Positions 3,480 to 59,987 are shown, counted from the first letter of the stretch. The stretch: 64,000 bases of DNA from Clostridia bacterium (GCA_017415485.1 JAFQGP010000115.1:8135-72134), one strand, 5' to 3'. The notes: generated by a model from the letters alone, not told the origin. Numbers and translations are program-made.

Positions 3480-3611
3480 CGATCTTTGTTGCAATGAAAT
3501 CCGCCTTCGGCGGGTGAAATCGCGCGTTGCGCGATGAAATCGAGCTTCGCTCGGTGAAATCTTCGCCTTTGGCGAAGGTTTCGGAAGATTTTCTCGCGGG
3601 GCTCGAAAATC
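3465..3611. repeat. Hairpin-train element H1: 12-bp hairpin over the stop codon plus 4-5 GC hairpins separated by the word [AG]TGAAAT
   Basis: GCAACAAAGATC-TGAC-GATCTTTGTTGC, with the TGA stop in the loop. It is followed by aATGAAAT-ccgccttcggcgg, GTGAAAT-cgcgcgttgcgcg, ATGAAAT-cgagcttcgctcg and GTGAAAT-cttcgcctttggcgaag. Confidence 0.85.
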
Positions 3612-6699: not shown

Positions 6700-8097
6700 A
6701 TGAAGAAATTTTTAGCACTTGCAATCACCGCTGCTATGCTTCTTTCCTTCGCAGTAATCGGTACATCCGCTGCAGAAGTATATGACGGCACAAGCGTATC
6801 CGCTTCCCTTTCCGGCGCGGGAACAGAGGCTGATCCCTATCTTATCGCAAACGGCGCAGACCTTGCATTCTTTGCTGCAAACGCAGTAGCAGGCGCTTCC
6901 TACAAGCTCACCGCTGACATCGTCTGGGCTTCCGCTGCCGAGGCAACCAACTGGACTCCCGTTGAATTCAACGGCACCTTCGACGGAAACGGTCACTCGA
7001 TCTCCGGCCTCTGCGTCAAGGGCGAAAAGAATGCTGCATTCTTCGCAACCGCAGCCGGTGCCATCAAGAACCTTACCATTAAGGATTCCACATTTGAGGG
7101 ATCGAAGTACATCGCCGCTATTGTCGGTCAGGTAGTAGCTGCAGACGCAAAGGAATCCGCTCCTTCTCTCACGATCGAGAACTGTGTAAGCTACGCTACC
7201 CTCATCTCGACCAAGAACAGCTCACTCATCGGCTCTATGATCGGCGACGCTTTCGCTAACGCGAAGACCCCCAACTATCTCACAGTTACAGTTTCGGGTT
7301 GTGTTAACTACGGCACCATCAGCTCCACCACGGACGGCACCGTTTACGTTGGCGGTATCATCGGCCGTACCTACGGTATTCCCGCAATTGTTGAAAACTG
7401 CGCGAACTTCGGCGATCTCAACTCCATTTCCGCTATCACCGGCGGTATCGTCGGCCAGGGCGGTATCAGCGGCGATACCTACGAAGGCTTCTCTACCAAG
7501 ATCAGCAACTGCCTTAACACCGGCAACGCGACCGGCAAGCGTATCTGCGGCGGTATCATCGGCCGTGCATACCCCGGCGTATACGTTGACGGATGTGTAA
7601 ACACCGGCAGCATGACCATCACCGCTACCGATGCGGCTAAGGACGGCTACAACGATCAGCTCGGCCCCATCACCGGCCACGGCCCCGATGCAAGAGCAGA
7701 TGCAGCTACCTTCGTCAACTGCGGTGAGATCACAAACTGCTACAACTCCGCAGAAGCAGTTTTCACCAACTCGAACGATGCAGCAGCCAAGCCCTTCTAC
7801 GCTTCTCTTGCAACCAATAAAACCGCTGCAGAGCTTAACAGCGCCGCTACCGTTACCGCTCTCGGCGACGCTTGGGAGCTCAAGGACGGCGTTCTTACTC
7901 TCAAGATCGTTGCTACCGCAGGCCAGGTTGAATCCGCACAGCCCGAGGTAACAGAACCTGAGGTTACCGAGCCCGCTCCCGAAGACACCAAGCCCGCGGA
8001 TCCCGTTCCCACCGGCGACTCCGCTCTCGTTTTCGCAGTGATCGCAATCATCTCCGTCCTCGGAGTTGCTGCTGTTGCAAAGAGAAGAGAGAATTAA
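6700..8097 (+). CDS. Secreted GLUG-like beta-helix repeat surface protein with a C-terminal PTGDSAL/TM/KRREN sorting signal
   Basis: Signal peptide MKKFLALAITAAMLLSFAVIGTSAAE. Repeats of CxNxG...GGIIG/GGIVG. Ends DPVPTGDSALVFAVIAIISVLGVAAVAKRREN. Confidence 0.85.
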   Translation: MKKFLALAITAAMLLSFAVIGTSAAEVYDGTSVSASLSGAGTEADPYLIANGADLAFFAANAVAGASYKLTADIVWASAAEATNWTPVEFNGTFDGNGHSISGLCVKGEKNAAFFATAAGAIKNLTIKDSTFEGSKYIAAIVGQVVAADAKESAPSLTIENCVSYATLISTKNSSLIGSMIGDAFANAKTPNYLTVTVSGCVNYGTISSTTDGTVYVGGIIGRTYGIPAIVENCANFGDLNSISAITGGIVGQGGISGDTYEGFSTKISNCLNTGNATGKRICGGIIGRAYPGVYVDGCVNTGSMTITATDAAKDGYNDQLGPITGHGPDARADAATFVNCGEITNCYNSAEAVFTNSNDAAAKPFYASLATNKTAAELNSAATVTALGDAWELKDGVLTLKIVATAGQVESAQPEVTEPEVTEPAPEDTKPADPVPTGDSALVFAVIAIISVLGVAAVAKRREN

Positions 8098-8329
8098 GTG
8101 GACAGTGGTTAGTGGACAGTGGACAGAAAGATGCGAATGATAATTTAATTTGTATATTTGCTATCCATTGTACTAACTAATAATTTAATAGAAAAAACTC
8201 GGATATTATGACGCGTTTGCATCAAAATATCCGAGTTTTTCTATCGCTTATCCAAACGAAGTTAACAGTGCACAAAACAAAATTACTTGTCGCAACTTTC
8301 TGTTCACTGTCCACTAACCACTGTTCCCT
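8098..8329. repeat. Palindromic intergenic element E1 (GTGGACA-heptamer arms, AT-rich core with a bidirectional terminator)
   Basis: The left arm GTGGACAGTGGTTAGTGGACAGTGGACAGAAAG (8098-8130) is the reverse complement of 8296-8328 with 2-3 mismatches. The element fills essentially the whole gap between two converging stop codons (8097 and 8332). Confidence 0.9.
8192..8241. terminator. Bidirectional rho-independent terminator inside E1
   Basis: AAAAACTCGGATATT ... AATATCCGAGTTTTT, with an A-tract and a T-tract on the two sides. Confidence 0.75.
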
Positions 8330-8331
8330 TA

Positions 8332-9180
8332 CTAAGCCTTTCCCTCTTCAATAAGCTCAATAAGCTCCGCGGTGAGACCTTCGGTGTGGTGGCAAAGGCA
8401 GAGATCGGCAACCGCCTTGACACAATCAAGGGCGTTTGAAGGACAAACGGCGACGTCCGCAGCCGCGAGCATTGTCAGATCGTTCTCGTAGTCGCCGCAG
8501 GCATAGATCTTGACGGGCTTGCCAACCTTTTTCTCCACGTATTCGCGCAGAGCCGGGAGCATCGTCGCTTTTGTGGTATTGGGCGATTGGAATTCAAGAT
8601 ATGCCGCGCCGGATTTGCTTGTTTCGAATCTGCCGGGCCATTTTGCTTCGGCAGCTGAGCGGAATTCATCAATGCGCTCGTTTGATCCGCGAACGACGAG
8701 CTTGTACCAATCCGCGATCGAGACCCACTCCTCTTCGGGGAGTGTGAAGACCTTTGCGGGTGCAACTTTGTTCAGATCGCGGTCGACCTCCGGGCAACGT
8801 TCGCGCTGACCGGGTGAGGAAAGGAAGCCTTCCTCCACAGAGATCCTCGCGCCGAGGTCGGGGTATTCCTTGATCATATACTCAACAAGCTCCACTACGT
8901 GCTCGCGGTTCATCAGTCTGCCATCGATCATTTTGTCGGTGCGAAGGTCGCAAAGCATTGCGCCGTTACAACCGACAACGGGCGCGTTGACAAGGTCTGC
9001 CGCGTCGCGCCATTTGTGCTTGAGGTTGAGATTCGTTCTTCCCGTTGCGATAGTGAAATGACCTCCCTGAGCCTTGAGGCGCTCGACAGCTTCAAGATTG
9101 CGCTCGATTGGCGCGCCGTGATTGCCGAAAAAAGTGCCGTCAAGGTCGGTGACGATCAGAATATTACTTAAATCTGCCAT
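8332..9180 (-). CDS. Cof-type HAD-IIB family hydrolase (sugar-phosphatase-like)
   Basis: 282 aa. Motif I is VTDLDGTF. Cap-domain architecture and a C-terminal GDYENDLTM motif. Confidence 0.8.
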   Translation of the reverse strand: MADLSNILIVTDLDGTFFGNHGAPIERNLEAVERLKAQGGHFTIATGRTNLNLKHKWRDAADLVNAPVVGCNGAMLCDLRTDKMIDGRLMNREHVVELVEYMIKEYPDLGARISVEEGFLSSPGQRERCPEVDRDLNKVAPAKVFTLPEEEWVSIADWYKLVVRGSNERIDEFRSAAEAKWPGRFETSKSGAAYLEFQSPNTTKATMLPALREYVEKKVGKPVKIYACGDYENDLTMLAAADVAVCPSNALDCVKAVADLCLCHHTEGLTAELIELIEEGKA

Positions 9181-10614: not shown

Positions 10615-10657
10615 TTTGCTTTCCTTATTGTATACAAGAAGAATATTTTTCCAAAAA

Positions 10658-11016
10658 GCAAGTGCGAACAAAGCTTTCTGGGTGTCCCCTCATCACCCGC
10701 TGCGGCGGGAGCTTCTCCCAGGAGAAGCCTGGGGAACTGTGAGCTTCGTTTGATATTTCCAATTATTCATTTTTCATTATTCATTTGACCAATTTAGGTT
10801 TATAATGAATAATGAATAATTATTAATTGGCAAGAACACTTTTCTATACAATCGAAACCCAAGTAATATTAATTAACAAATTACATTCATTACTAATAAC
10901 GATAAGCTTCATTTAGATAATTCCAAATGAAGCTAACAGTGACCCCAAGGCTTCTCCTGGGAGAAGCTCCCGCCGCAGCGGGTGATGAGGGGACACCCAG
11001 AAGAATGTGTTAGCAC
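10658..11016. repeat. Long palindromic intergenic element E2 (arms about 95 bp, AT-rich core with a TTATTCA-word inner palindrome)
   Basis: The left arm GCAAGTGCGAACAAAGCTTTCTGGGTGTCCCCTCATCACCCGCTGCGGCGGGAGCTTCTCCCAGGAGAAGCC... recurs as its reverse complement at 10924-11016. The same arm family occurs at 32029 and 34919. Confidence 0.9.
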
Positions 11017-11048
11017 TATCTTTCAAAGAGCTCTAAAACAGATAAATT

Positions 11049-28778: not shown

Positions 28779-29321
28779 TTATGCAAAATCCGCCAATCTC
28801 TGCACGGCATTCTCCGCAAAAATGGCACGGGCGTGCTCTTTTATGTATCCTTCGATCTTTTCGCAGTCGCGGCGGCAGCCGAATTCATTTATCACAGCCG
28901 CCTCGAGCGGCAACCGCTCGTCTCGGTCAACTTCGGGAAGGATCAAGGCAAACGCACCCTCGGGGAGCGCATAAGCAGAACTGCATTTGCCGAGACCGCG
29001 CGTGTGAAGGATGCGGCAAAGCGCGATCATCGACTGTATCGTGTCAAAAATGCAGACCGACGCGTCGGTTTCCTTTATTCCGCTCGTAAGCGCGACGCGC
29101 GTGACGAACATCTCGCAACCGCCGCCCCTCGAGGGAAAGACCTGAACGAGCAGCCGCCCGCTTTCGATATCGAATCCGCAATCATTGTGCGCCATCTCAA
29201 GCACGGGCTTGAACCCGCGCCTCAGCGCACTCTCACCGTCGCATTCGATATTGTATTTTTTCATATCTTCTGCGCTCAACATTATCTTGAGCTTCGAATT
29301 GCTTATAAGAATAAGTTCCAT
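28779..29321 (-). CDS. MecA-like adaptor protein (short form)
   Basis: 180 aa. The N-terminus [25 protein letters not shown] resembles the MecA N-terminal domain. Confidence 0.6.
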
Positions 29322-29412
29322 ATCAACCTCGCAAAAAATTTCGTTACACTATAATTATAATCTATTTTGCGACGAAATGTAACCCCTAAAAAGGTGGGAA
29401 ACTGGGAAATTA

Positions 29413-29713
29413 GTGGGCAGATCAGAGTGGACAGTGGACAGATCAGAGTGGACAGTGGACAGTGGACAGTGAACAGAAAGATGCGAATGATATTTTTATT
29501 TATCTTTTCTGTTAATTATTAAACAAATAATTTAATATATAAAACTCTCGGATATCTTGAATTCCTTCAAATATCCGAGAGTATTTTTTATTGCTTATTA
29601 CTCTTTAGTATAATACAAAAACTCTATGTTTTGCACAAAATTATTGCAGCAACCCGCATCTTTCTGTCCACTGTCCACTAACCACTGTCCACTCTTATCT
29701 GACCACTGTCCAC
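29413..29713. repeat. Palindromic intergenic element E3 (GTGGACA-heptamer arms, same family as E1)
   Basis: The left arm has (GTGGACA)n interspersed with GATCAGA and ends CAGAAAGATGCGAATGA as in E1. The right arm CTTTCTGTCCACTGTCCACTAACCACTGTCCAC is the exact reverse complement of the E1 left arm. Confidence 0.9.
29541..29589. terminator. Terminator hairpin in the E3 core
   Basis: ACTCTCGGATAT ... ATATCCGAGAGT followed by TTTTTT. It is homologous in position and sequence to the E1 core hairpin, with a TC/GA insertion pair in the stem. Confidence 0.7.
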
Positions 29714-29718
29714 TTTGC

Positions 29719-30936
29719 TTAAAACAGCTTATACTTCCCCTCCGCTCCCGCTCTCTTCTCGATTCCCGCGGTAAAATCGGGGAACGCCATGGGCGCGCCG
29801 CCTTGCTTGATCGACTGCTCGGAAAGGGGCGTTACTGCCATGAGGATAGCAGAGTCGTAAATATCTATCGGTACGGGTGTGCCGTCCTTGATCGCGGTGA
29901 TGAAGGAGTCGAGGACGAGGAAGTCCATTCCGCCGTGACCGGTCTTGATGCCCGCCTCGAGGTAGTCGCGCCAGAGCTTAGGCATATATTTTTCCTCATA
30001 CTGCGAGTAGTTGCCCCAGAAATTCTTCCACTTGAAGTGGTCGCTTTCCTGATGGTCGGCGTCGCTGTAGACCGACATATTATCCTGCATAAACCAAGCC
30101 TTTGTGCCGTGGATCTCAAGTCCGCGCGAATAGGGACGCGGCAGGGTGGTGTCGAGAGTCAGACGCACGGTCTGACCGAATTCGGTGGTAAGGATCGTTG
30201 TGATAATATCACCCTGCGCCCACTTGCCGTCGGCGTAAGTCTGGTCGCGGTCAGGGTGATTTTTGATATAAGTATCAAGTCCCGCGCTCTTGGAGGAGAA
30301 GGAGGAAACGCTTGTAAACTTATTTCCGTGACCGATGCCGAGAAGCACGTTGAGCGGACCAAGCTCGTGGGTGGGATAGTTTTCACCGCAGCGGCTGCGG
30401 TAGTTGCGGTGGCGGTAATGACGGTTTACAAGCCCCATCGAGATCTCCTCGCGAAGGTCGTGGCAATAGCCGCCGCAAAGGTGGACGATCTCGCCGAAGA
30501 AGTTGTCCGCGTTCATCGCGTAAAGAGTCTGCTCGAGTCTGCCGTAACAGCAGTTTTCAAGCATCATCGCGGGCGTGCCCGTCTCGCGGTGAGCCTCGCA
30601 AAGCTGAATGCACTCGTCGATGGAGTAAGCGCCTCCAACCTCAAAAGCAACCGGCTTGCCCGCCTTCATCGAAGCGACAGCCGCGGGAACGTGGTTTTCC
30701 CAAGCCGAGAAGACGAATACCATCTCGACTTCGGGCGAAGCGATAAGCTCCTCATAATTCAGATAGATCTTGGGATCGTGTCCGAGAGCCGCGATCTTTT
30801 CCTTCATATCGTCACATCTGTCCTGATATTCGTCGCAGATAGCGGTGACCGCGCAGTTTTCGTGCTCGGCAACAAGAGTTCCCATTGTCTTTCCGCGACA
30901 GCCGAGACCGATTATACCAACCTTGATCTTTTCCAT
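29719..30936 (-). CDS. Gfo/Idh/MocA-family NAD-dependent oxidoreductase (GH109-like)
   Basis: 405 aa. Rossmann N-terminus KVGIIGLGCRG, with a C-terminal alpha/beta domain. Confidence 0.8.
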   Translation of the reverse strand: MEKIKVGIIGLGCRGKTMGTLVAEHENCAVTAICDEYQDRCDDMKEKIAALGHDPKIYLNYEELIASPEVEMVFVFSAWENHVPAAVASMKAGKPVAFEVGGAYSIDECIQLCEAHRETGTPAMMLENCCYGRLEQTLYAMNADNFFGEIVHLCGGYCHDLREEISMGLVNRHYRHRNYRSRCGENYPTHELGPLNVLLGIGHGNKFTSVSSFSSKSAGLDTYIKNHPDRDQTYADGKWAQGDIITTILTTEFGQTVRLTLDTTLPRPYSRGLEIHGTKAWFMQDNMSVYSDADHQESDHFKWKNFWGNYSQYEEKYMPKLWRDYLEAGIKTGHGGMDFLVLDSFITAIKDGTPVPIDIYDSAILMAVTPLSEQSIKQGGAPMAFPDFTAGIEKRAGAEGKYKLF

Positions 30937-31984: not shown

Positions 31985-32028
31985 TTTATGTTCCTTTCTT
32001 TTGAGAAAAGTGTATTTTCTATAAAATC

Positions 32029-32423
32029 AGTGCGAACATAGACGCACTCGGTGTCCCCTCATCACCCGCTACGTCAGAACCCCAAAAACGCGCAAGCGCG
32101 TTTCCGGGAACCCGACGGCTGGAGCTTCTCCCAGGAGAAGCCTAAGGAAAGCTGTCGCTTTGAGCTAAATATTTCTCTGTTAGAGAAATGCTAAATTTTC
32201 GCTATGCAAAAGCTAAATACGCGCTTTGCGCGAGCTAAATATTCCGCCAAAGCGGAATGCAAAGGTAGAAATTTGCCAAGGCAAATTTCAATTTCATTTA
32301 ATTAATGATACGAATATTAGACAATACCAAACGAAGCTCACAGTAACCCCAGGCTTCTCCTGGAAGAAGCTCCCTCCGCAGAGGGTGATGAGGGGACACC
32401 CAGAAAGCTTTGTTCGCACTTGC
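32029..32423. repeat. Long palindromic intergenic element E4 (E2 arm family) with a central GCTAAAT hairpin train
   Basis: The arms GGTGTCCCCTCATCACCCGC...GGAGCTTCTCCCAGGAGAAGCC pair with their reverse complement at 32345-32423. The core at 32162-32292 has 5 hairpins separated by GCTAAAT. It is about 90% identical to E6. Confidence 0.9.
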
Positions 32424-32488
32424 TATTCTACTAAAATCGAAAATTTTCGCCTCGGCGAAAATTCACCTTAACTCTGCACTCTGAACTC

Positions 32489-33193
32489 TTAACTCTGCAC
32501 TATCTTTCGGATAATATGTCCCGCCATAATCAACCCTACCGCTCCCGGCACAAACGACAGGCTTCCCGGCGTATTTCTGCCGTTTTCGCTCTCAAGCCCT
32601 TGCGCCTTGATCGGCTCTTCGTCCGACCAGACGACGTCAAGCTTCTTGATACCTTTTTCCTTCATCTTCTTCCGCATAATTTTCGCAAGCGGGCAGACGC
32701 TCGTTTTGCTGATGTCGGATATGCGGAAACGCTCGGGATAAAGCTTGTTCCCCGCGCCCATCGAGGCAATAACGGGAACTCCCGCCGCATCTGCGCGGCA
32801 GATTAGCTCGACCTTTGCCGCGACGGTATCGACCGCGTCGGCAATGAAATCGAACTGCGAGAGGTCGATCTCGTCGGCATTTTCGGGCAGATAAAAGAGA
32901 TTGACGGGATGCACCTTACATTCGGGATTGATCGAAAGAATGCGCTCCGCCATAACCTCGGATTTTGGTCTGCCGACGGTATCCTGTGTCGCAATGATCT
33001 GGCGGTTTACGTTCGAGGTCGAAACCGTGTCGCCGTCAATGACTGTCAGCTCGCCGACCCCCGCGCGTGCCAAAGCCTCGCAAAGATGTCCGCCGACACC
33101 GCCAAGCCCGAAGACCGCAACGTGCGCCGATCTCAATCTGTTCACGCCCTCCTCGCCAAGCAAAGCCCGCGTGCGTGTATCGTCAAGTTGCAT
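32489..33193 (-). CDS. tcdA: tRNA threonylcarbamoyladenosine dehydratase (ThiF/HesA fold)
   Basis: 234 aa. Nucleotide-binding loop VFGLGGVGG, with TcdA/CsdL-like sequence. Confidence 0.85.
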   Translation of the reverse strand: MQLDDTRTRALLGEEGVNRLRSAHVAVFGLGGVGGHLCEALARAGVGELTVIDGDTVSTSNVNRQIIATQDTVGRPKSEVMAERILSINPECKVHPVNLFYLPENADEIDLSQFDFIADAVDTVAAKVELICRADAAGVPVIASMGAGNKLYPERFRISDISKTSVCPLAKIMRKKMKEKGIKKLDVVWSDEEPIKAQGLESENGRNTPGSLSFVPGAVGLIMAGHIIRKIVQS

Positions 33194-33905: not shown

Positions 33906-33934
33906 TTCTGTCCTTTCCGCAAATACAGACTTTG

Positions 33935-34154
33935 TCCTCCTCATCCACCACTGCCGTGGTCCCCCTTCCCCGCTGGGGAAGGCTTGTTGAGCGAGTGCTG
34001 ACATTGACTGTATGGGGTGATTTTGCAGTGCTTTTAGAAACGCTGGTAAATGCTCAATACTATTGCACTATACGATGTTCATAAGATCAAGTGAGACTAT
34101 AATTTAGCCTTCCCCAGCGGGGAAGGGGGACCACGGCAGTGGTGGATGAGGAGG
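33935..34154. repeat. Palindromic intergenic element E5 (same arm architecture as E2/E4/E6, different hairpin sequences)
   Basis: TCCTCCTCATCCACCACTGCCGTGGTCCCCCTTCCCCGCTGGGGAAGGC (33935-33983) pairs with its reverse complement at 34107-34154. Confidence 0.85.
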
Positions 34155-34347
34155 ACATTATCGCAGCAAATTGTATTCAGAAATCAAGTTGTAATGTAAT
34201 ATCGTTATAATTCTATCACAATTCCCCGAAATATGCAATAGAAATTTCAAAAGAGGTGCGTAAGTATGCAAAAAAATCTTTACAAGAGGGAAAAAATGGT
34301 GTATAATTATTCTGTATAAATATAAAATAATATTTTGAGGTGATAAT

Positions 34348-34899: not shown

Positions 34900-34918
34900 T
34901 AATTGACTTTATCATTTA

Positions 34919-35285
34919 GCAAGTGCGAACAAAGCTTTCTGGGTGTCCCCTCATCACCCGCTACGTCAGAACCCCAAAAACGCGCAAGCGCGTTTCCGGG
35001 AACCCGACGGCGGGAGCTTCTCCCAGGAGAAGCCTAGGGAGTCTAACGCCTTGAGCTAAATATTTCTCTCTTAGAGAAATGCTAAATTTTTGCTATGCAA
35101 AAGCTAAATTCGCGCTTTGCGCGAGCTAAATATTCCGCTAAAGCGGAATGCAAAGGTAGAAATTTGCCAATGCAAATTTCAATTTAATAAATAATTCGAA
35201 GATTCGAGAATTCCAAACGAAGCTCACAGTAACCCCAGGCTTCTCCTGGGAGAAGCTCCCGCCGCAGCGGGTGATGAGGGGACAC
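34919..35285. repeat. Long palindromic intergenic element E6 (near-copy of E4, same orientation)
   Basis: Same arms as E4, and the same GCTAAAT hairpin train at 35053-35183. Confidence 0.9.
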
Positions 35286-35352
35286 CGTTTGTGCCCAATG
35301 AACACAAGTGAATATTCACTTTAACGATAAAAATTAATCAAGGAGTCCCAAA

Positions 35353-37692: not shown

Positions 37693-38532
37693 ATGAGAGA
37701 TAATTACGACATTTTGAAGACCGAGGGCAGAAACCCTCGCACAATGGACATTGATAAGCTTTCCTCACTCGAAATGGTGCGCCTGATAAATCAGGAGAAC
37801 CGAGCCGTTGAGGACGGCATCGATGAGGCACTCCCCGAGATTGCGGCGGCTATTGATATGATAAGCGAAGCCATCGAGGCGGGGGGCCACGTCATTTATA
37901 TCGGCTGCGGCACTTCGGGCAGACTCGGCATCGTCGATGCCTCCGAATGCCCGCCCACCTTTGGCGTTGATTATGATCTTTTCCGCGGCGTTATCGCGGG
38001 CGGCAAGGAAGCCGTTTTCCGCGCGACCGAGAACGCCGAGGACAGCGAGGAAAAGGGTATGGCCGCCATCGAAGCCGACGGCGCGGCCAGAGGCGACGTT
38101 GTAGTCGGACTTTCCGCGTCGGGACGCGCGCCCTTCGTCATCGGCGCACTCAAAAAGGCAAAAGAACTCGGCTGCAAGACGATCTCCGTAACCTGCAACC
38201 CCGGCTCGCTTATGGAAAACTGCGCTGATATTGCCGTTTCGGTTTACGTCGGCCCCGAGGTAATTTCGGGCTCCACAAGACTCAAAGCCGGCACGGCACA
38301 GAAACTGATACTTAATATGTTCTCCACCTGCGCGATGATAAAGACGGGCAAAGTGCGCTCGAACCTCATGGTAAACGTCCGCCCGACCAACGAAAAGCTC
38401 GTTGAACGCGCGACACGCATCATTATGCAACTTTCCGACGCCGACAGAGAGACCGCCGAAAGACTGCTTGCGGAGTACGGCGAGGTGCCCGCGGCGCTGG
38501 ATGCGTATGAAAGTGCAAAAGGCAAAATGTAA
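37693..38532 (+). CDS. murQ: N-acetylmuramic acid 6-phosphate etherase
   Basis: Start at MRDNYDILKTEGRNPRTMDID. SIS domain GCGTSGRLG. The ATG lies 2 nt after the upstream stop. Confidence 0.9.
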   Translation: MRDNYDILKTEGRNPRTMDIDKLSSLEMVRLINQENRAVEDGIDEALPEIAAAIDMISEAIEAGGHVIYIGCGTSGRLGIVDASECPPTFGVDYDLFRGVIAGGKEAVFRATENAEDSEEKGMAAIEADGAARGDVVVGLSASGRAPFVIGALKKAKELGCKTISVTCNPGSLMENCADIAVSVYVGPEVISGSTRLKAGTAQKLILNMFSTCAMIKTGKVRSNLMVNVRPTNEKLVERATRIIMQLSDADRETAERLLAEYGEVPAALDAYESAKGKM

Positions 38533-38844
38533 AATGCAAAATGTAGGTGAATTTTCTCGCTTCGCTCAAAAATTTTCATTTGAATACAAGCAGCTTAAAG
38601 TTTTGATCGAACTTTTTCAAAAGTTCGCAGAGCTCGAGACAGCGTCTCGATTCAATGCAAAAGCTTCAGCTTTTGCCTCCGTGCTTCAAAATGGCGAAGC
38701 TTCGCTTCGACATTTTGGACAGAGTCAATACTTCCCGATTGTAGGGAAGTGCAGCTCTTGCGGTTTTCCGAAGGAAAATGGAGGCGTAAGCCGAGAAGCA
38801 AGAGTTGCAACTTGCCGTAGGCAAGTATTTGCGCTCTGTCACCC
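38521..38844. repeat. Structured repeat H2 (left module, copy A)
   Basis: It begins with (C/T)AAAATG x3 across the murQ stop. Positions 38549-38844 are homologous to 42879-43101, and the module ends GCGCTCTGTCACCC. It carries extra hairpins inserted at 38755-38830. Confidence 0.85.
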
Positions 38845-38904
38845 TTTGCTGAATAAAATTATTTAGCAAATTGGCTTTACATCTCTCTATTTTGGAGAAT
38901 CCCT

Positions 38905-39114: not shown

Positions 39115-39275
39115 AGGAGCAAAACCTCCCCGCGGGGAGGTTTTACTCCTTCCAAACAGCCTGCGGGGCGCAGTCTGTTTGAAGCGCAAGGGAATTTCGC
39201 CCTCTGCGGAGGGCGACTTAAGGCTCTGCCTTAAGAAACCGCAACCTTTTGAAAAAGGTTGACCAAAACTTTGAT
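39111..39275. repeat. Structured repeat H3 (right module, copy A)
   Basis: GTGAAGGAGCAAAACCTCCCCGCGGGGAGGTTTTACTCCTTC... contains five hairpins and is homologous to 44837-45001 with compensatory stem changes. Confidence 0.9.
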
Positions 39276-41464: not shown

Positions 41465-42843
41465 TCCATTCCTATAAACTTGGCGGTTACAATATCGTCC
41501 TTGACGTCGGCTCGGGCGCGGTGCACGCGGTTGATGATCTTGCCTATGACGTCATAAATCTCTACGAAACCAAGTCGGCAGACGAGATCGTCTCGGTCTG
41601 CCTTGAAAAATTCGCCTCCGAAGGTATCACCGAAGAGGACATCCGCGACACGATCTCCGACGTTGAAGAGCTCAAACAGAGCGGCAAACTTTACGCCGAG
41701 GATATCTATGCGCCCCTCGTCGGCAAGCTCAAGAACAATTCCAACATCGTCAAGGCACTCTGCCTGCACGTCGCGCACACCTGCAACCTCAACTGCGAAT
41801 ACTGCTTCGCGGCACAGGGTCGATTCCACGGCGAACGCGCCCTGATGTCATTTGAGGTCGGCAAGCGCGCGCTTGATTTCCTTGTTGAAAACTCGGGAAC
41901 CCGCCACAATCTTGAAGTCGACTTCTTCGGCGGCGAGCCGCTGATGAACTGGCAGGTCGTCAAGGATCTCGTTGCCTACGCGCGCTCGATCGAGGAAGCC
42001 GCAGGCAAGCATTTCCGCTTCACGCTGACGACAAACGGCGTGCTGATCGACGACGACGTCATTGATTTTGCCAACAAAGAGATGGACAACGTCGTTCTCT
42101 CGCTCGACGGCAGACGCCACGTGCACGACAACCTCCGCAAAACTGTGAACGGTCAGGGCAGCTATGACCTGATCCTTCCGAAGTTCAAGGAATTCGTCAC
42201 CCGCCGCGGCGACAAGGGCTACTATATGCGCGGTACATACACCAAGTTCAACACCGATTTCTGCTCCGACATCATCCACATGGCTGACGAAGGCTTTACC
42301 GAGCTTTCGATGGAGCCCGTAGTCTGCCCTCCCGGCGACCCCTACGCACTCGGCGACGAGGATCTGCCCGTGCTTTACGATCAGTATGAAAAGCTCGCCT
42401 TTGAGATGATGGACCGCAAGAAGCGCGGCAAGCCGATCACCTTCTATCACTATATGCTCGACCTTGAGGGCGGCCCCTGCATCTACAAGAGAATTTCCGG
42501 CTGCGGCTCGGGCACCGAGTATATGGCTGTCACCCCTTGGGGCGACCTTTACCCCTGCCATCAGTTCGTCGGCGACGAAAAATACCTCCTCGGCGACATC
42601 TGGAAGGGCGTAACGAACGACGCCATCCGCGACGAATTCCGCTCCTGCTCGGCATATTCGAGAGAGGAATGCCGCGACTGCTGGGCCAGACTCTACTGCT
42701 CCGGCGGCTGCGCCGCGAACTCCTACCACGCAACCGGAAGCGTAAACGGCGTTTATGAGTACGGATGTAAGCTGTTCAAGAAACGAATCGAGTGCGCGAT
42801 CATGCTGAAGGTCGCGGAATCCCTCGAAAACGAAGAAGAATAA
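41461..42843 (+). CDS. scfB: SCIFF radical SAM/SPASM maturase
   Basis: Start at MIHSYKLGGYNIVLDVGSGAVHAVDD. CNLNCEYC radical-SAM motif and a Cys-rich SPASM C-terminus (CRDCWARLYCSGGCAANS). Confidence 0.92.
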   Translation: MIHSYKLGGYNIVLDVGSGAVHAVDDLAYDVINLYETKSADEIVSVCLEKFASEGITEEDIRDTISDVEELKQSGKLYAEDIYAPLVGKLKNNSNIVKALCLHVAHTCNLNCEYCFAAQGRFHGERALMSFEVGKRALDFLVENSGTRHNLEVDFFGGEPLMNWQVVKDLVAYARSIEEAAGKHFRFTLTTNGVLIDDDVIDFANKEMDNVVLSLDGRRHVHDNLRKTVNGQGSYDLILPKFKEFVTRRGDKGYYMRGTYTKFNTDFCSDIIHMADEGFTELSMEPVVCPPGDPYALGDEDLPVLYDQYEKLAFEMMDRKKRGKPITFYHYMLDLEGGPCIYKRISGCGSGTEYMAVTPWGDLYPCHQFVGDEKYLLGDIWKGVTNDAIRDEFRSCSAYSREECRDCWARLYCSGGCAANSYHATGSVNGVYEYGCKLFKKRIECAIMLKVAESLENEEE

Positions 42844-43101
42844 GTTGCTAGTTGCTAGACGCTAGTTGCTAGTTGAAGGTTAATTTCCGCCCTGATCGGG
42901 CGGAAATTTTCATTCTAATTAAAGAGCAGGAAAGTTTTCGTCCACCTTTTTCAAAAGGTGGCGGAGCACGAGGCAGAGCCTCGGACTAATGCGAAAGCTT
43001 CAGCTTTCGCTTCTGCGCTTCAAAATGACGAAGCTCTGCTTCGGCATTTTGGACAGAGTCAACACTTCCCGAATGTAGGGAAGTGTTGCGCTCTGTCACC
43101 C
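42844..43101. repeat. Structured repeat H5 (left module, copy B)
   Basis: It begins with GTTGCTA-type heptamers x5 directly after the scfB stop, continues with sequence homologous to 38549-38844, and ends GCGCTCTGTCACCC. Confidence 0.9.
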
Positions 43102-43121
43102 CTTATTATTTAATATTCAAA

Positions 43122-44836: not shown

Positions 44837-45001
44837 GTGAAGGAGCAAAAATCTCCCGCAAGGGGAGATTTTACTCCTTCCGAACCGTCGACGGGGCGTC
44901 GCCGGTTCGAAGCACAAGGAAATTTCGCGCTCTGCGGAGCGCGACTTAAGGCTCTGCCTTAAGAAACCGCAAACTTTTGAAAAAGTTTGATCAAAACTTT
45001 T
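44837..45001. repeat. Structured repeat H6b (right module, copy B)
   Basis: Collinear with 39111-39275. Linkers are identical (TTACTCCTTCC, CTTAAGGCTCTGCCTTAAGAAACCGCAA) and the stems differ by paired substitutions. Confidence 0.9.
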
Positions 45002-58352: not shown

Positions 58353-59987
58353 TCAGTTTTCTCTTCTCTTTGCAACAACTGCAACTCCGCAAAGGGAGAT
58401 AACAGCAACAACAGCGAAGATGAGAGCGGAGTCGCCGGTGGGAACGGGATCTGCAGGAACTTCGGGCTCGGTGATAACGGGATCAAGCTTGCCCTCGGGA
58501 TCCGAGATAATGAGTCCCTTGTAGATGTTGATATCCTTGTACTCTGCAACAAGGCTCTTGTTGTGGAGGTAGAAGCCTACACAAACCTGGAAACCGGACT
58601 CGTGAGGATAAGGAGTGCCATCGGTAGCCTTGGTGGTGTTGGTCATATCGATAACGTTGTAGGAGATCCACTTGCCTTCGGTGTTGAGGTAGTAAATGGT
58701 AGCCTGGTAACCGTGCATCTCAACGCGGAAGGTTGCGTAACCGTCTGCATCGTGGCCGAGGTCTTCAACAGGAACATACTCCTTGCCGGGAGTGTTGATG
58801 TTTGTGATCTTGGTGGAACCGTGCTCGGTTGCGAAGGAACCGGTCTGGAAGTTACCGTAGATATTGAAGGAGTTGTTGAAGGGATGGAGGGTAGGAACTG
58901 CGAAGCAGAAACCGGTGTTCTTTGCGCCGGTCTTTACCTTCCACTCAGTGGTGTATCTGGTCTCGGAGTTGATCTCAAGGCCTTCAACGATAGAACCGTA
59001 GTATGTACCCTTTTCTGCGGAGCCGTCCTGCTCGATCTTGATGTAGTCCTTATCAGCGGGATCAAGAGTGATGTTGAACTTTTCGCCGTTAGCAGCAAGG
59101 AAACGTGCGGAGAAGCCGGTATCCTTTCTCGAGAAATCGGGGGTAAAGAGAATGTCGCCGGTCTTAGCCTTATCGTAACCGGTTACGGAAGCACCCTCAA
59201 CGTAGTAGTCGGGGTAAGTGGGGTTCTTAACGGTGTTGCCTTCGTAAACAACAGCATCCTTGATGGTGATAGCTGCGCCCGGGTTGTAGAGGTATGCGGA
59301 GAGACCGAAGTTGGGAGCAACCTCAAGAAGACCGGTGTTGAATGCATCATACTCGTCGATGTATACGTTGTTGATGAATACCTTAACGTTTGCACCGGTA
59401 ACTACGAAATCGATGTCAACGAAGCCCTCAGCGTCAACTGCGGAGAGGTACTTTGCGTCGGTAACGTAAGCATCGCCATAGAAAATGGAACCGATGGACT
59501 TACCGCCTGCACCGTAGCTCATTACGTGACGGATGTTGGGACAACCGTAGTAGCCAACAAGAGATTTGTAACCAAGGTCAAGAAGATACTGAGCCTCGGT
59601 GTTGGTGGGCATGTTGATGAACACACCTGCGTTGCCGGAAGCGAGCTTACCGTCGGTATCGGTGTAAGCAACTGCCATCTTCATAGAGAAGGTGTAGTTC
59701 TTGCCCTCGCCGTAGGTGAGACCCTTGATTGCGCCGCCCCAGAATGCACGGCCTGCAGCAGTACCTGCATAGGTAACGGTTGCGGACTTGCCGTCATCGG
59801 AAACGGTTGTTGCGAGAGTTCCGTCGCCCTTGAGGAGACAGAAATCTGCGGGAGCGTACTTGTCGTCGCCCTTGAAGTTGACTTCATAGAGAACGTCGCC
59901 TTCCTTAGCGGAAGCGGTGATTCCCATAGCAGCAACAAGCGCGAGGATCATTGTGAGAGAAAGAATTGCGCTGAGGATCTTTTTCAT
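58353..59987 (-). CDS. Secreted surface protein (beta-sandwich/lectin-like, function unknown) with a PTGDSAL/TM/KRREN sorting signal
   Basis: Signal peptide MKKILSAILSLTMILALVAAMGITASA. Ends DPVPTGDSALIFAVVAVISLCGVAVVAKRREN. It is a paralogue of the next gene. Confidence 0.8.
   Translation of the reverse strand: MKKILSAILSLTMILALVAAMGITASAKEGDVLYEVNFKGDDKYAPADFCLLKGDGTLATTVSDDGKSATVTYAGTAAGRAFWGGAIKGLTYGEGKNYTFSMKMAVAYTDTDGKLASGNAGVFINMPTNTEAQYLLDLGYKSLVGYYGCPNIRHVMSYGAGGKSIGSIFYGDAYVTDAKYLSAVDAEGFVDIDFVVTGANVKVFINNVYIDEYDAFNTGLLEVAPNFGLSAYLYNPGAAITIKDAVVYEGNTVKNPTYPDYYVEGASVTGYDKAKTGDILFTPDFSRKDTGFSARFLAANGEKFNITLDPADKDYIKIEQDGSAEKGTYYGSIVEGLEINSETRYTTEWKVKTGAKNTGFCFAVPTLHPFNNSFNIYGNFQTGSFATEHGSTKITNINTPGKEYVPVEDLGHDADGYATFRVEMHGYQATIYYLNTEGKWISYNVIDMTNTTKATDGTPYPHESGFQVCVGFYLHNKSLVAEYKDINIYKGLIISDPEGKLDPVITEPEVPADPVPTGDSALIFAVVAVISLCGVAVVAKRREN

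Follow-up and report, generated by a model that had tools for sequence, protein, structure and literature searches.

Palindromic repeats with heptamer-array arms at gene ends in gut Clostridia: probable terminator-bearing derivatives of an intervening-sequence-type cassette

Introduction

The intervening sequences (IVSs) of 23S rRNA in Coxiella burnetii, Leptospira, and Brucella are regarded as selfish, and their mode of spread is not known. The IVS of Coxiella, described as a selfish element 428 nt long, has a stem formed by a 28-bp inverted repeat, which RNase III cuts, and contains an S23p open reading frame (ORF) (Warrier et al. 2016, PMC4990558). Between AGAAGA and the ATG, it carries two or three copies of GACAGAT and a GACAGAA, in a number that depends on the strain, and an old, untested idea sees a mobility factor in the product of the IVS ORF (PMC4990558). 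Here, two palindromic repeats, E1 (8097 to 8329) and E3 (29412 to 29714), were analyzed in a 64,000-nt stretch of DNA from a Clostridia bacterium (GCA_017415485.1, JAFQGP010000115.1:8135-72134), referred to below as the window, with positions counted from its first letter. On balance, the data favor the view that E1 and E3 are ORF-less derivatives of an IVS-type selfish cassette, present in many copies in the manner of miniature inverted-repeat transposable elements (MITEs), that now act as bidirectional terminators.

Several families of short, noncoding, multicopy intergenic repeats have inverted ends that form hairpins in mRNA, including the Correia elements of Neisseria, SPRITE, RUP, and BOX of pneumococci, and ERIC of enterobacteria. 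SPRITE carries or mimics terminators, and Correia RNA is cut by RNase III; small repeats with known parents are associated with DDE transposases and with TA or other target duplications. To our knowledge, heptamer arrays do not form the arms of any of the Correia, SPRITE, RUP, BOX, or ERIC families, and none of these has a full form with a four-helix-bundle gene. The E1/E3 family also resembles the repetitive extragenic palindromes (REPs), with the related bacterial interspersed mosaic elements (BIMEs) and REPINs, which are palindromes at gene ends with mosaic modules, conservation in place, and effects on mRNA 3' ends. REPs, however, are imperfect palindromic units of 20 to 40 nt that have a conserved GTAG-type head and are served by a Y1 transposase of their own, RAYT, whereas the unit anatomy of E1 and E3 is different.

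Heptamer repeats are also known in Nostoc, as STRR. Intergenic heptanucleotide arrays have been described in marine Beggiatoaceae (TAACTGA; PMC4679880) and in Nostoc (bioRxiv 10.1101/2022.06.06.494920). Like the arms of E1 and E3, these arrays are tandem, of period 7, abundant, and intergenic, and they abut coding boundaries; function and origin are not known. They differ in being direct repeats, mostly just upstream of starts, that are not described as inverted pairs around a gene or terminator. The Avd proteins of diversity-generating retroelements offer a further comparison, since the ORF of the full form described below matches bAvd weakly and avd, too, sits past the 3' end of its target gene, but the match falls below family cutoffs and no reverse transcriptase, template repeat, or variable repeat lies nearby. 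IS607 shares the lack of target-site duplication and has ends of several short repeated motifs that are bound cooperatively, but it has no terminal inverted repeats and encodes a serine recombinase (PMC6188088); no recombinase was seen at the loci of the E1/E3 family.

Results

Arms and interior of E1 and E3

The two elements are palindromic repeats of roughly 230 to 300 bp per copy. Both have a 39-nt inverted terminal arm of AGTGGAC/AGTGGTT heptamers and CAGAAAGATGCG. The interior that they share is rich in A and T, and its conserved central hairpin, TCGGATAT...ATATCCGA, is flanked on either side by A- and T-runs. An earlier note on this DNA had described tandem heptamers in both, which was confirmed by 13 matches to GTGGACAGTGGACAG (two mismatches at most) in the window, every one of them in E1 or E3 (0.05 expected), and by period-7 arrays located with Tandem Repeats Finder at 8097 to 8126, 29412 to 29476, and 29664 to 29714. 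Its description of the ends as inverted likewise held, the arms being 75% complementary in E1 (8075 to 8151 versus 8275 to 8351) and 90% in E3 (29423 to 29485 versus 29655 to 29717). The exact complementarity between the left arm of E1 and the right arm of E3, given there as 33 nt, in fact covers 39 nt (8097 to 8135 and 29655 to 29693). The sequence CAGAAAGATGCGAATGAT, said to be shared, was located at 8124 to 8141 and 29474 to 29491, and the central hairpins are homologous as proposed, a TC insertion in one arm of the stem being compensated by GA in the opposite arm.

Both elements lie between protein-coding genes, and no rRNA was found in the window. The note had also stated that they fill whole intergenic gaps. 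This is true of E1, where the final A of the upstream stop codon TAA (8095 to 8097) doubles as the first base of the arm and only 2 bases separate the element from the converging stop, but not of E3, because about 90 nt with the promoter and ribosome-binding site (RBS) of the gene at 28779 to 29321 (minus strand) remain on its left.

A multicopy family with conserved anatomy

A scan of species-representative genomes for the arm pattern GTGGACAGTGRACAGAAAG gave at least 96 stretches, and the loci are referred to by L numbers. Among the matches listed, nearly all came from eight related metagenome-assembled genomes (MAGs) of ruminant or yak gut, labeled Eubacteriales, Clostridia, or Acutalibacteraceae, two of which carry at least 23 and at least 19 loci; the family thus amounts to dozens of copies per genome in uncultured gut relatives. 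Contig ends fall within an arm in many cases, the pattern that an assembly-breaking repeat should give.

From these loci, 49 paired elements were delimited. Read from the outside inward, an element consists of a terminal A (98% of 112 distinct arms), a variable array, CAGAAAGATGCG, an A-half of the pattern AATGATAATTTAATT..CCATTGT..AATAATTTAAT, the hairpin between its A-run and its T-run, a looser B-half, and the inverted arm. The array units are GTGGACA, GTGGTTA, and GTGAACA, at times interspersed with GATAAGA, GATCAGA, or GAAATGA. In 35 copies, identity to the consensus was 90 to 100% in the arms (a figure partly inflated because loci were found through an arm), approximately 99% in the hairpin core, 70 to 99% in the A-half, and 40 to 60% over most of the B-half. 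Approximately 230 nt of ordered, nonrepetitive sequence between the arms is common to dozens of unrelated loci.

The central hairpin

The hairpin of E1, CTCGGATAT..ATATCCGAG (8198 to 8235), has a folding energy of -26.8 kcal/mol (z = -8.6), and the homologous hairpin of E3, CTCTCGGATAT..ATATCCGAGAG (29545 to 29581), has -21.4 kcal/mol (z = -6.7). Among 28 distinct copies, the core UCGGAUAU/AUAUCCGA was invariant, and 8 of the 16 pairs of the consensus structure showed two-sided changes that preserve pairing. The base of the stem, for example, switches between A-U/C-G and U-A/A-U, and L089 has GGAAAT/ATTTCC in place of GGATAT/ATATCC. At least 5 T residues were present in the 8 nt past the stem, on both strands, in 36/36 hairpin-bearing copies. 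The stable stem-loop with an immediate U-run that characterizes an intrinsic terminator was thus found in both directions, and this anatomy, together with the position of the elements, suggests that transcription arriving from either side would end there.

The whole of E1 folds at -100.6 kcal/mol (z = -12.8), with the arms paired over approximately 31 bp. Within its A-half, CCATTGTACTAAC matches the arm as a degenerate complement, and the predicted fold of the 3' untranslated region (3'UTR) pairs the two, using G-U pairs.

Position relative to genes

Neighboring genes were taken from a crude longest-ORF caller that mis-called at least the neighbors of E3, so the orientation counts that follow are approximate. 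For the 43 copies with both neighbors, the setting was convergent in 21, tandem in 20, and divergent in 2; a gene 3' end faces the element in 41/43, usually with a gap of a few nucleotides to the stop codon. A preference for gene 3' ends, which the earlier note had set as a refutation test, was accordingly observed. L087, one of the two divergent cases, is a mis-call. The only clear divergent copy is L072 (4398 to 4633); the start codon of one of its neighbors is 35 nt away, and the promoter of that gene must therefore be in or beyond the element.

Tandem copies lie against the stop of the upstream gene, mostly at gaps of -15 to +21 nt, with 60 to 150 nt left before the next start, and in the convergent setting, both gaps are small. 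The stop codon is inside the arm in approximately one quarter of cases, as TAG in GTGGTTAGTGG or TGA in GTGAACA. Where the host terminator has been kept, the arm begins right past its T-run (L013, L014, L036, L037, L052, L065, and L081). DNA flanking an arm often looks like the spacer unit of the element itself, G(A/G)AAATTA, and the A- and B-halves show no bias in orientation relative to genes (8 versus 4).

The gene upstream of E1 was not truncated by it: the protein ends in KRREN directly before the stop, as do its two paralogues in the window, so E1 sits after the natural stop. In the paralogues, the stop is followed by approximately 25 nt and then by an ordinary terminator of their own. 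These surface proteins have repeats and a PTGD-hydrophobic-KRREN tail; the two paralogous genes end near 58357 and 60141 (minus strand).

Gain, loss, and heptamer number

Copies of the family have been gained, swapped, and lost at gene ends. At the E1 site in L200, where the HAD hydrolase is 87% identical, the same convergent pair of genes is separated by a 69-nt gap with an ordinary bidirectional terminator. In L198 and L199, the surface-protein gene is absent between the HAD hydrolase and a cation-efflux gene, and the gaps, of 33 and 64 nt, hold little beyond a terminator. E1 therefore occupies the place of the normal terminator, and beside E1 nothing is left of an ordinary one. At the E3 site, the copy in L033 is near-identical. 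In L195 (76% orthologue), a decayed copy has barely recognizable arms (GTGATCA GCGGTTA GTGAATG) and retains the hairpin CTCCGGAT..ATCCGGAG with its T-run. In L196 (73%), an ordinary terminator 4 nt past the stop is all that is present, and in L197 (58%) there is nothing. L006 and L033, in one MAG, have near-identical interiors and unrelated flanks. Orthologous copies are kept in several species, and full and internally deleted forms occur at orthologous sites (L008 versus L020 and L030).

The arms appear to gain and lose heptamers by slippage, as seen in their length variation. E1 was identical in the window and in five metagenome contigs; in GCA_017408385.1, one of its arms is longer by 14 nt (two heptamers) and the T-run by 1 T. 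L049 lacks 14 nt that are present in the orthologous copies L048 and L007, and across the family the arrays comprise 0 to 13 extra units beyond the inner GTGGACAGTGGACAG pair. E3 was invariant among the strains retrieved. Variation of heptamer number between strains had been predicted in the earlier note, and with this both of the tests that it had named as capable of refuting it came out in its favor; its overall reading, of a palindromic family with slippage-prone heptamer ends, a terminator core, and a gene-end site, is supported.

The same arms around a PF05635 gene

No ORF is present in E1 or E3, and no PF05635 gene was found in the window. Elsewhere, arms of the E1/E3 type lie 430 to 480 nt apart around a 121-aa ORF, at one orthologous site in L087 and L052 and at another in L008 and L020. 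It starts with an ATG that follows GAGGAA and is placed 13 nt inside the arm. For the protein, matches were obtained to PF05635 (23S_rRNA_IVP; E = 6e-40), TIGR02436 ("four helix bundle protein"; E = 9e-40), and PDB entry 2gsc (XCC0516; E = 5e-23); its matches to bAvd are weak and below the cutoff (PF22296, E = 1e-6; NF033474, E = 2.6e-6). The ORF-bearing copies retain approximately 22 nt of the B-half beside one arm, and the full form of L087, with the ORF, folds at -150 kcal/mol with the arms paired. At the site of L052/L087, a third species (L081) has the hairpin-core form instead, again flanked by the two host terminators of that site. A single site can therefore carry either the ORF or the hairpin core, and such a swap is compatible with recombination between arms.

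Homologues of the PF05635 protein number more than 7,900; across phyla, identity is typically 60 to 70%, and the contigs that carry them are often very short. By alignment of 12 diverse members, 80 metagenome PF05635 loci were fetched, and those that extend at least 150 nt past each end of the gene were tested for period-7 self-match. The best 28-nt window matched itself at a lag of 7 in 19.5 to 20 positions on each side of the gene, against approximately 12 at all other lags from 3 to 12 and 11.6 in DNA 300 nt off. The upstream and downstream arrays were inverted copies of each other (score of at least 30) at 46/67 loci, versus 2% of mismatched locus pairs and 6/67 same-orientation controls; arms are thus alike within an element and unlike from one element to the next. 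The array units begin with AG in 70/83 arrays and have the consensus AGTGGTT, the same type as the units of E1 and E3. The upstream neighbor was co-oriented with the PF05635 gene in 45/51 loci. The start of the left array preceded the end of the upstream ORF by a median of 4 nt (15/21 within 15 nt), and the right array runs into the ATG of the next gene in examples such as L129. None of the 40 heptamer-flanked PF05635 loci checked was in rRNA.

Solo (AGTGGAC)n-AGAAAG arrays were seen directly past stop codons in distant phyla: in Thermoguttaceae (L016 and L062), for example in the nusG-rplK gap; in Acidobacteriota (L022, L032, and L050); and in L001, which mixes 8-nt and 7-nt units. No PF05635 gene was found near the non-Clostridia solo arm matches. 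Stop codons in the period-7 units were counted on the inward strand at 64% (46 to 55% expected) and on the outward strand at 51% (25 to 27% expected). A role of the 7-nt period in placing stops in all frames was not favored, the inward strand being near expectation and the outward one only modestly enriched.

In the literature, with incomplete coverage, no description was found of heptamer arms around PF05635 genes outside rRNA or of ORF-less derivatives; likewise with incomplete coverage, the arm sequence was not found, and a link between PF05635 and heptamers was met only in the Coxiella IVS paper.

Other repeats in and around the family

A second palindromic family is present in the window at 10654 to 11023 (E2), 32026 to 32427 (E4), and 34917 to 35286 (E6), and at 33933 to 34157. 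Its arms comprise two adjacent hairpins with co-varying stems after TGTCCYCCTCATC. The earlier note had pointed to a near-core motif shared with E1 and to a common origin. The motif, CCAAAYGAAGYTMACAGT, did recur, with 5 matches in the window (E1 at 8252 to 8269, and E2/E4/E6) and 0 expected; common origin rests only on these 18 nt, CCAAACGAAGYTMACAGT, which are all that this family and E1 have in common, their arms being unrelated. An E2-type element is nested within a heptamer element in L055 (approximately 7150 to 7530). An inverted repeat, ACGCTGTCATCCTGAGCG(G/A)AGCGAAGCGGAGTCGAAGGA, also occurs as an inserted module in or beside heptamer elements (L055, 6500 to 6720; L045, approximately 900 to 1000).

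A multi-hairpin module of approximately 200 to 260 nt was seen in the window at 38546 to 38850 and 42866 to 43105 (plus strand) and, inverted, at 39115 to 39275 and 44840 to 45000, and also in L014, L015, L037, L045, L065, L074, L083, and L086. It has five or six hairpins whose stems co-vary, such as GAACTTTT..AAGTTC, CCACCTTTT..AAAGGTGG, and CAAACTTTT..AAGTTTG, folds at -125 kcal/mol (z = -9.9), and has no match in Rfam; in other genomes it stands past a solo GTGGACA arm. In L013 (1934 to 3790), two solo arms of the E1/E3 family, one left and one right, enclose an enolase gene; the left arm stands directly past a host terminator, and part of this module precedes the right arm.

Further period-7 arrays in the window are those at 38510 to 38543 (AAAATGC), 42843 to 42875 (AGTTGCT), and 32470 to 32501 (AACTCTG), as well as ATTATTC at 10762 to 10785 with its inverse at 10802 to 10820. 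Two of these arrays of other units begin at or inside the upstream stop, and each is then followed by a GGTGAATTTYC..GRAAATT hairpin. In L059, a GTGGACA arm and a GCATTTT array occupy opposite ends of one gap. A Gut-1 RNA (RF01706) was identified at 3492 to 3565 (plus strand; 75.6 bits versus a gathering threshold of 50).

Table 1. Positions of the parts of E1 and E3 and of the adjoining genes in the window
Feature	Position	Strand	Description
Gene upstream of E1	6700..8097	+	465-aa cell-surface protein; tail PTGD-hydrophobic-KRREN-stop
E1 left arm	8097..8135		AGTGGACA GTGGTTA GTGGACA GTGGACA GAAAGAT GCG; the family's canonical 39-nt inverted arm
E1 A-half	8136..8191		AATGATAATTTAATT..CCATTGT..AATAATTTAAT
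E1 central hairpin region	8192..8240		A-run 8192-8197, stem-loop 8198-8235, T-run 8236-8240
E1 B-half	8241..8290		Less conserved interior; CCAAACGAAGTTAACAGT at 8252-8269, motif also in E2/E4/E6
E1 right arm	8291..8329		CGCAACTTTCTGTTCACTGTCCACTAACCACTGTTCCCT; outermost heptamer degenerate
Converging gene at E1	8332..9180	-	HAD/Cof-type hydrolase, PF08282; stop 8332-8334, 2 nt from E1
Gene downstream of E3	28779..29321	-	Weak MecA match; promoter and RBS at ~29322-29411, between the gene and E3
E3 left arm	29412..29485		Expanded: AGTGGGCA GATCAGA GTGGACA GTGGACA GATCAGA GTGGACA x3 GTGAACA, then GAAAGATGCG
E3 A-half	29486..29540		AATGATATTTTTATTT...AATAATTTAAT
E3 central hairpin region	29541..29589		A-run, CTCTCGGATATC..ATATCCGAGAG (29545-29581), T-run
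E3 B-half	29590..29654		Subfamily also in L004, L006, L033, and L073
E3 right arm	29655..29714		CGCATCTTTCTG TCCACTG TCCACTA ACCACTG TCCACTC TTATCTG ACCACTG TCCACT
Gene with its 3' end toward E3	29719..30936	-	GFO_IDH_MocA / Glyco_hydro_109_C; stop 4 nt from E3

Discussion

The cassette and its ORF-less derivatives

The full form of the cassette would consist of the same arm pair around a PF05635 gene, encoding a four-helix-bundle protein of the 23S rRNA intervening-sequence, Avd-like kind, an architecture that recurs across phyla; the shared arms suggest that the ORF-less elements arose from it. In these, the central hairpin would act as a factor-independent terminator in both directions. E1 would then be the sole candidate terminator for either of its flanking genes, and E3 would insulate two co-directional genes. 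Each terminated mRNA would have an arm, a half, and the hairpin as its 3' end, the arm thus lying in the 3'UTR, where it may fold back on its degenerate internal complement (CCAUUGU of the A-half against ACAGUGG, with G-U pairs) to give a second hairpin beside the terminator. In read-through RNA, the two arms could pair into a duplex of 30 to 60 bp, a potential substrate of RNase III as in the rRNA IVSs. The arms would persist for the need of the element rather than that of the host, which in L195 kept only the hairpin. Spread would occur without target duplication, and the candidate agents are the four-helix-bundle protein acting on the period-7 arms or recombination between arms.

Several observations weigh against this account. 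Among the matches listed, E1/E3 arms surround the ORF in only four copies, at two loci, and the ORF could therefore be cargo rather than ancestral content; moreover, we know of no mobility mechanism for PF05635 proteins. Since the loci were picked by the arm pattern, the conservation of the arms is partly ascertainment. The genes around the loci were called by a crude ORF heuristic with known mis-calls, and the tight abutment to stop codons may come from targeting or from deletion-driven compaction and may partly reflect the very compact intergenic regions of these genomes (the gap in L198 is 33 nt), although, as noted, flanks often look like the spacer unit. The hairpin holds just 4 to 5 G-C pairs and was not listed by a simple terminator scan, because its loop and stem exceed the limits of that scan. 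The strain-level difference of 14 nt could be an assembly artifact.

Alternative explanations

If the elements were ordinary MITEs, they would be deleted forms of a DDE-type insertion sequence whose transposase, encoded elsewhere, binds the heptamer arms, with the terminator incidental and the ORF a passenger. Terminal inverted repeats, small size, many copies, presence and absence, nested insertions, and internally deleted forms are all consistent with such an origin. It nevertheless appears unlikely, as no target-site duplication of 2 to 9 bp was detected in 47 elements under two boundary definitions (observed equal to expected), and no transposase was seen between or next to the arms among the 96 loci listed, whole genomes not having been scanned. 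The only ORF found between paired arms is that of PF05635, the other cargo seen being enolase, where the arms are solo, and a small ORF together with nested repeats, and the layout of array, ORF, and array recurs across phyla with differing unit sequences. Two long arm pairs were considered as a possible transposase parent and rejected: the 1.8-kb pair in L013 brackets the enolase gene, and the 1.2-kb pair in L055 contains the nested repeats and small ORF. Maintenance by the host, as for a REP- or BIME-like element whose arrays bind a DNA- or RNA-binding protein of the nucleoid or of mRNA stability and are homogenized by gene conversion, would account for orthologous copies in several species, for arms and hairpin more conserved than the interior, for the mosaic make-up with other repeat modules seen in BIMEs, and for solo arrays past stop codons in other phyla. 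The pattern in L195, with decayed arms and a surviving hairpin, suggests instead that the host needs the terminator and not the arms. The arms are also common to a selfish-looking ORF cassette, there is no REP-type GTAG palindrome, and no RAYT gene is known (the genomes were not scanned for RAYT), and we therefore regard host maintenance as improbable.

A small RNA or cis-regulatory RNA family, transcribed inside the element and ending at the hairpin, could explain why the A-half, conserved at 70 to 99%, lies between a weak promoter-like TGGACA-17-AATGAT and the terminator, and why the predicted folds are strong. However, the promoter-like sequence is a poor match, the element has two-fold symmetry and no bias in orientation, and no Rfam family scored above threshold, the only matches being sub-threshold ones to long-hairpin miRNA precursors; this explanation seems very improbable. 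Least credible of all is that there is no element, only local expansions of simple heptamers beside ordinary terminators. Heptanucleotide arrays are common products of slippage in bacteria (PMC4679880), but the multi-locus alignment already refutes such an explanation here, with its approximately 230 nt of shared, ordered sequence between the arms in dozens of unrelated loci, and relatives have a different, ordinary terminator at the E1 site.

Other identities were tried and rejected. At the Rfam gathering level, the window contains only Gut-1, elsewhere than E1 or E3. In viral contigs, the arm pattern gave one chance coding match, so a phage origin was dismissed, and a promoter in the arm was limited to the weak TGGACA-17-AATGAT. 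Insertion into the loop of a preexisting hairpin was excluded by the flanks, which are both purine-rich when read inward and so not complementary. Integron attC sites were not recognized, as R''-L''/L'-R' core sites (RYYYAAC..GTTRRRY) are lacking and the neighbors are housekeeping genes in mixed orientation. Defining features were also lacking for a hammerhead-like reading of UGAUGAG (in E2-type arms) and for CsrA-type GGA repeats.

Relation to rRNA intervening sequences and MITEs

With the rRNA IVSs, the E1/E3 family shares inverted ends that form a long stem, as predicted by the folds of E1 and L087, and tandem GACAG-type heptamers with copy-number variation as in Coxiella; written in that frame, the arm of the family reads GACAGTG GACAGTG GACAGAA AGATGCG. 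A PF05635 ORF a few nucleotides inside the arm is found only in the siblings L087, L052, L008, and L020. The family, like the IVSs, appears selfish. It differs in lying past protein-coding genes rather than in helix 25 or 45 of 23S rRNA, in that E1 and E3 have a terminator hairpin and no ORF, and in reaching dozens of copies per genome. With MITEs it shares terminal inverted repeats, a small noncoding body, and many copies, but not target-site duplication or a transposase parent in the loci listed. Membership in either class is not claimed, because two tests failed for each (duplication and transposase parent for MITEs, location and ORF for rRNA IVSs). E1 and E3 are best filed as an ORF-less, terminator-bearing variant of the IVS-type heptamer-armed cassettes, with MITE-like behavior.

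Implications

More tentatively, and with somewhat less confidence than not, the heptamer-armed cassettes may constitute a cross-phylum selfish class with PF05635 as sole gene, settling past stop codons without target duplication. Such a class could be the source of the 23S rRNA IVSs, of ORF-less derivatives such as E1 and E3 acting as terminators, and of solo arrays, and its protein may be what recognizes the period-7 arms, in the form of either RNA or single-stranded DNA, and mediates their spread or maintenance. This would join three things that have been treated separately: the rRNA IVS with its S23p protein, the intergenic heptanucleotide arrays, and MITE-like repeats that supply terminators. 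If true, relics in the form of solo arrays could also explain the intergenic heptanucleotide repeats of cyanobacteria and Beggiatoaceae. The function of the S23p four-helix-bundle protein has not been known for about 30 years, and binding of period-7 arrays of the AGTGGTT type is offered here as a hypothesis for PF05635. The arms provide a marker for a census of these elements in any genome. For the gut Clostridia themselves, E1 would show a selfish element replacing the ordinary terminator of a convergent gene pair and becoming a gene-end signal.

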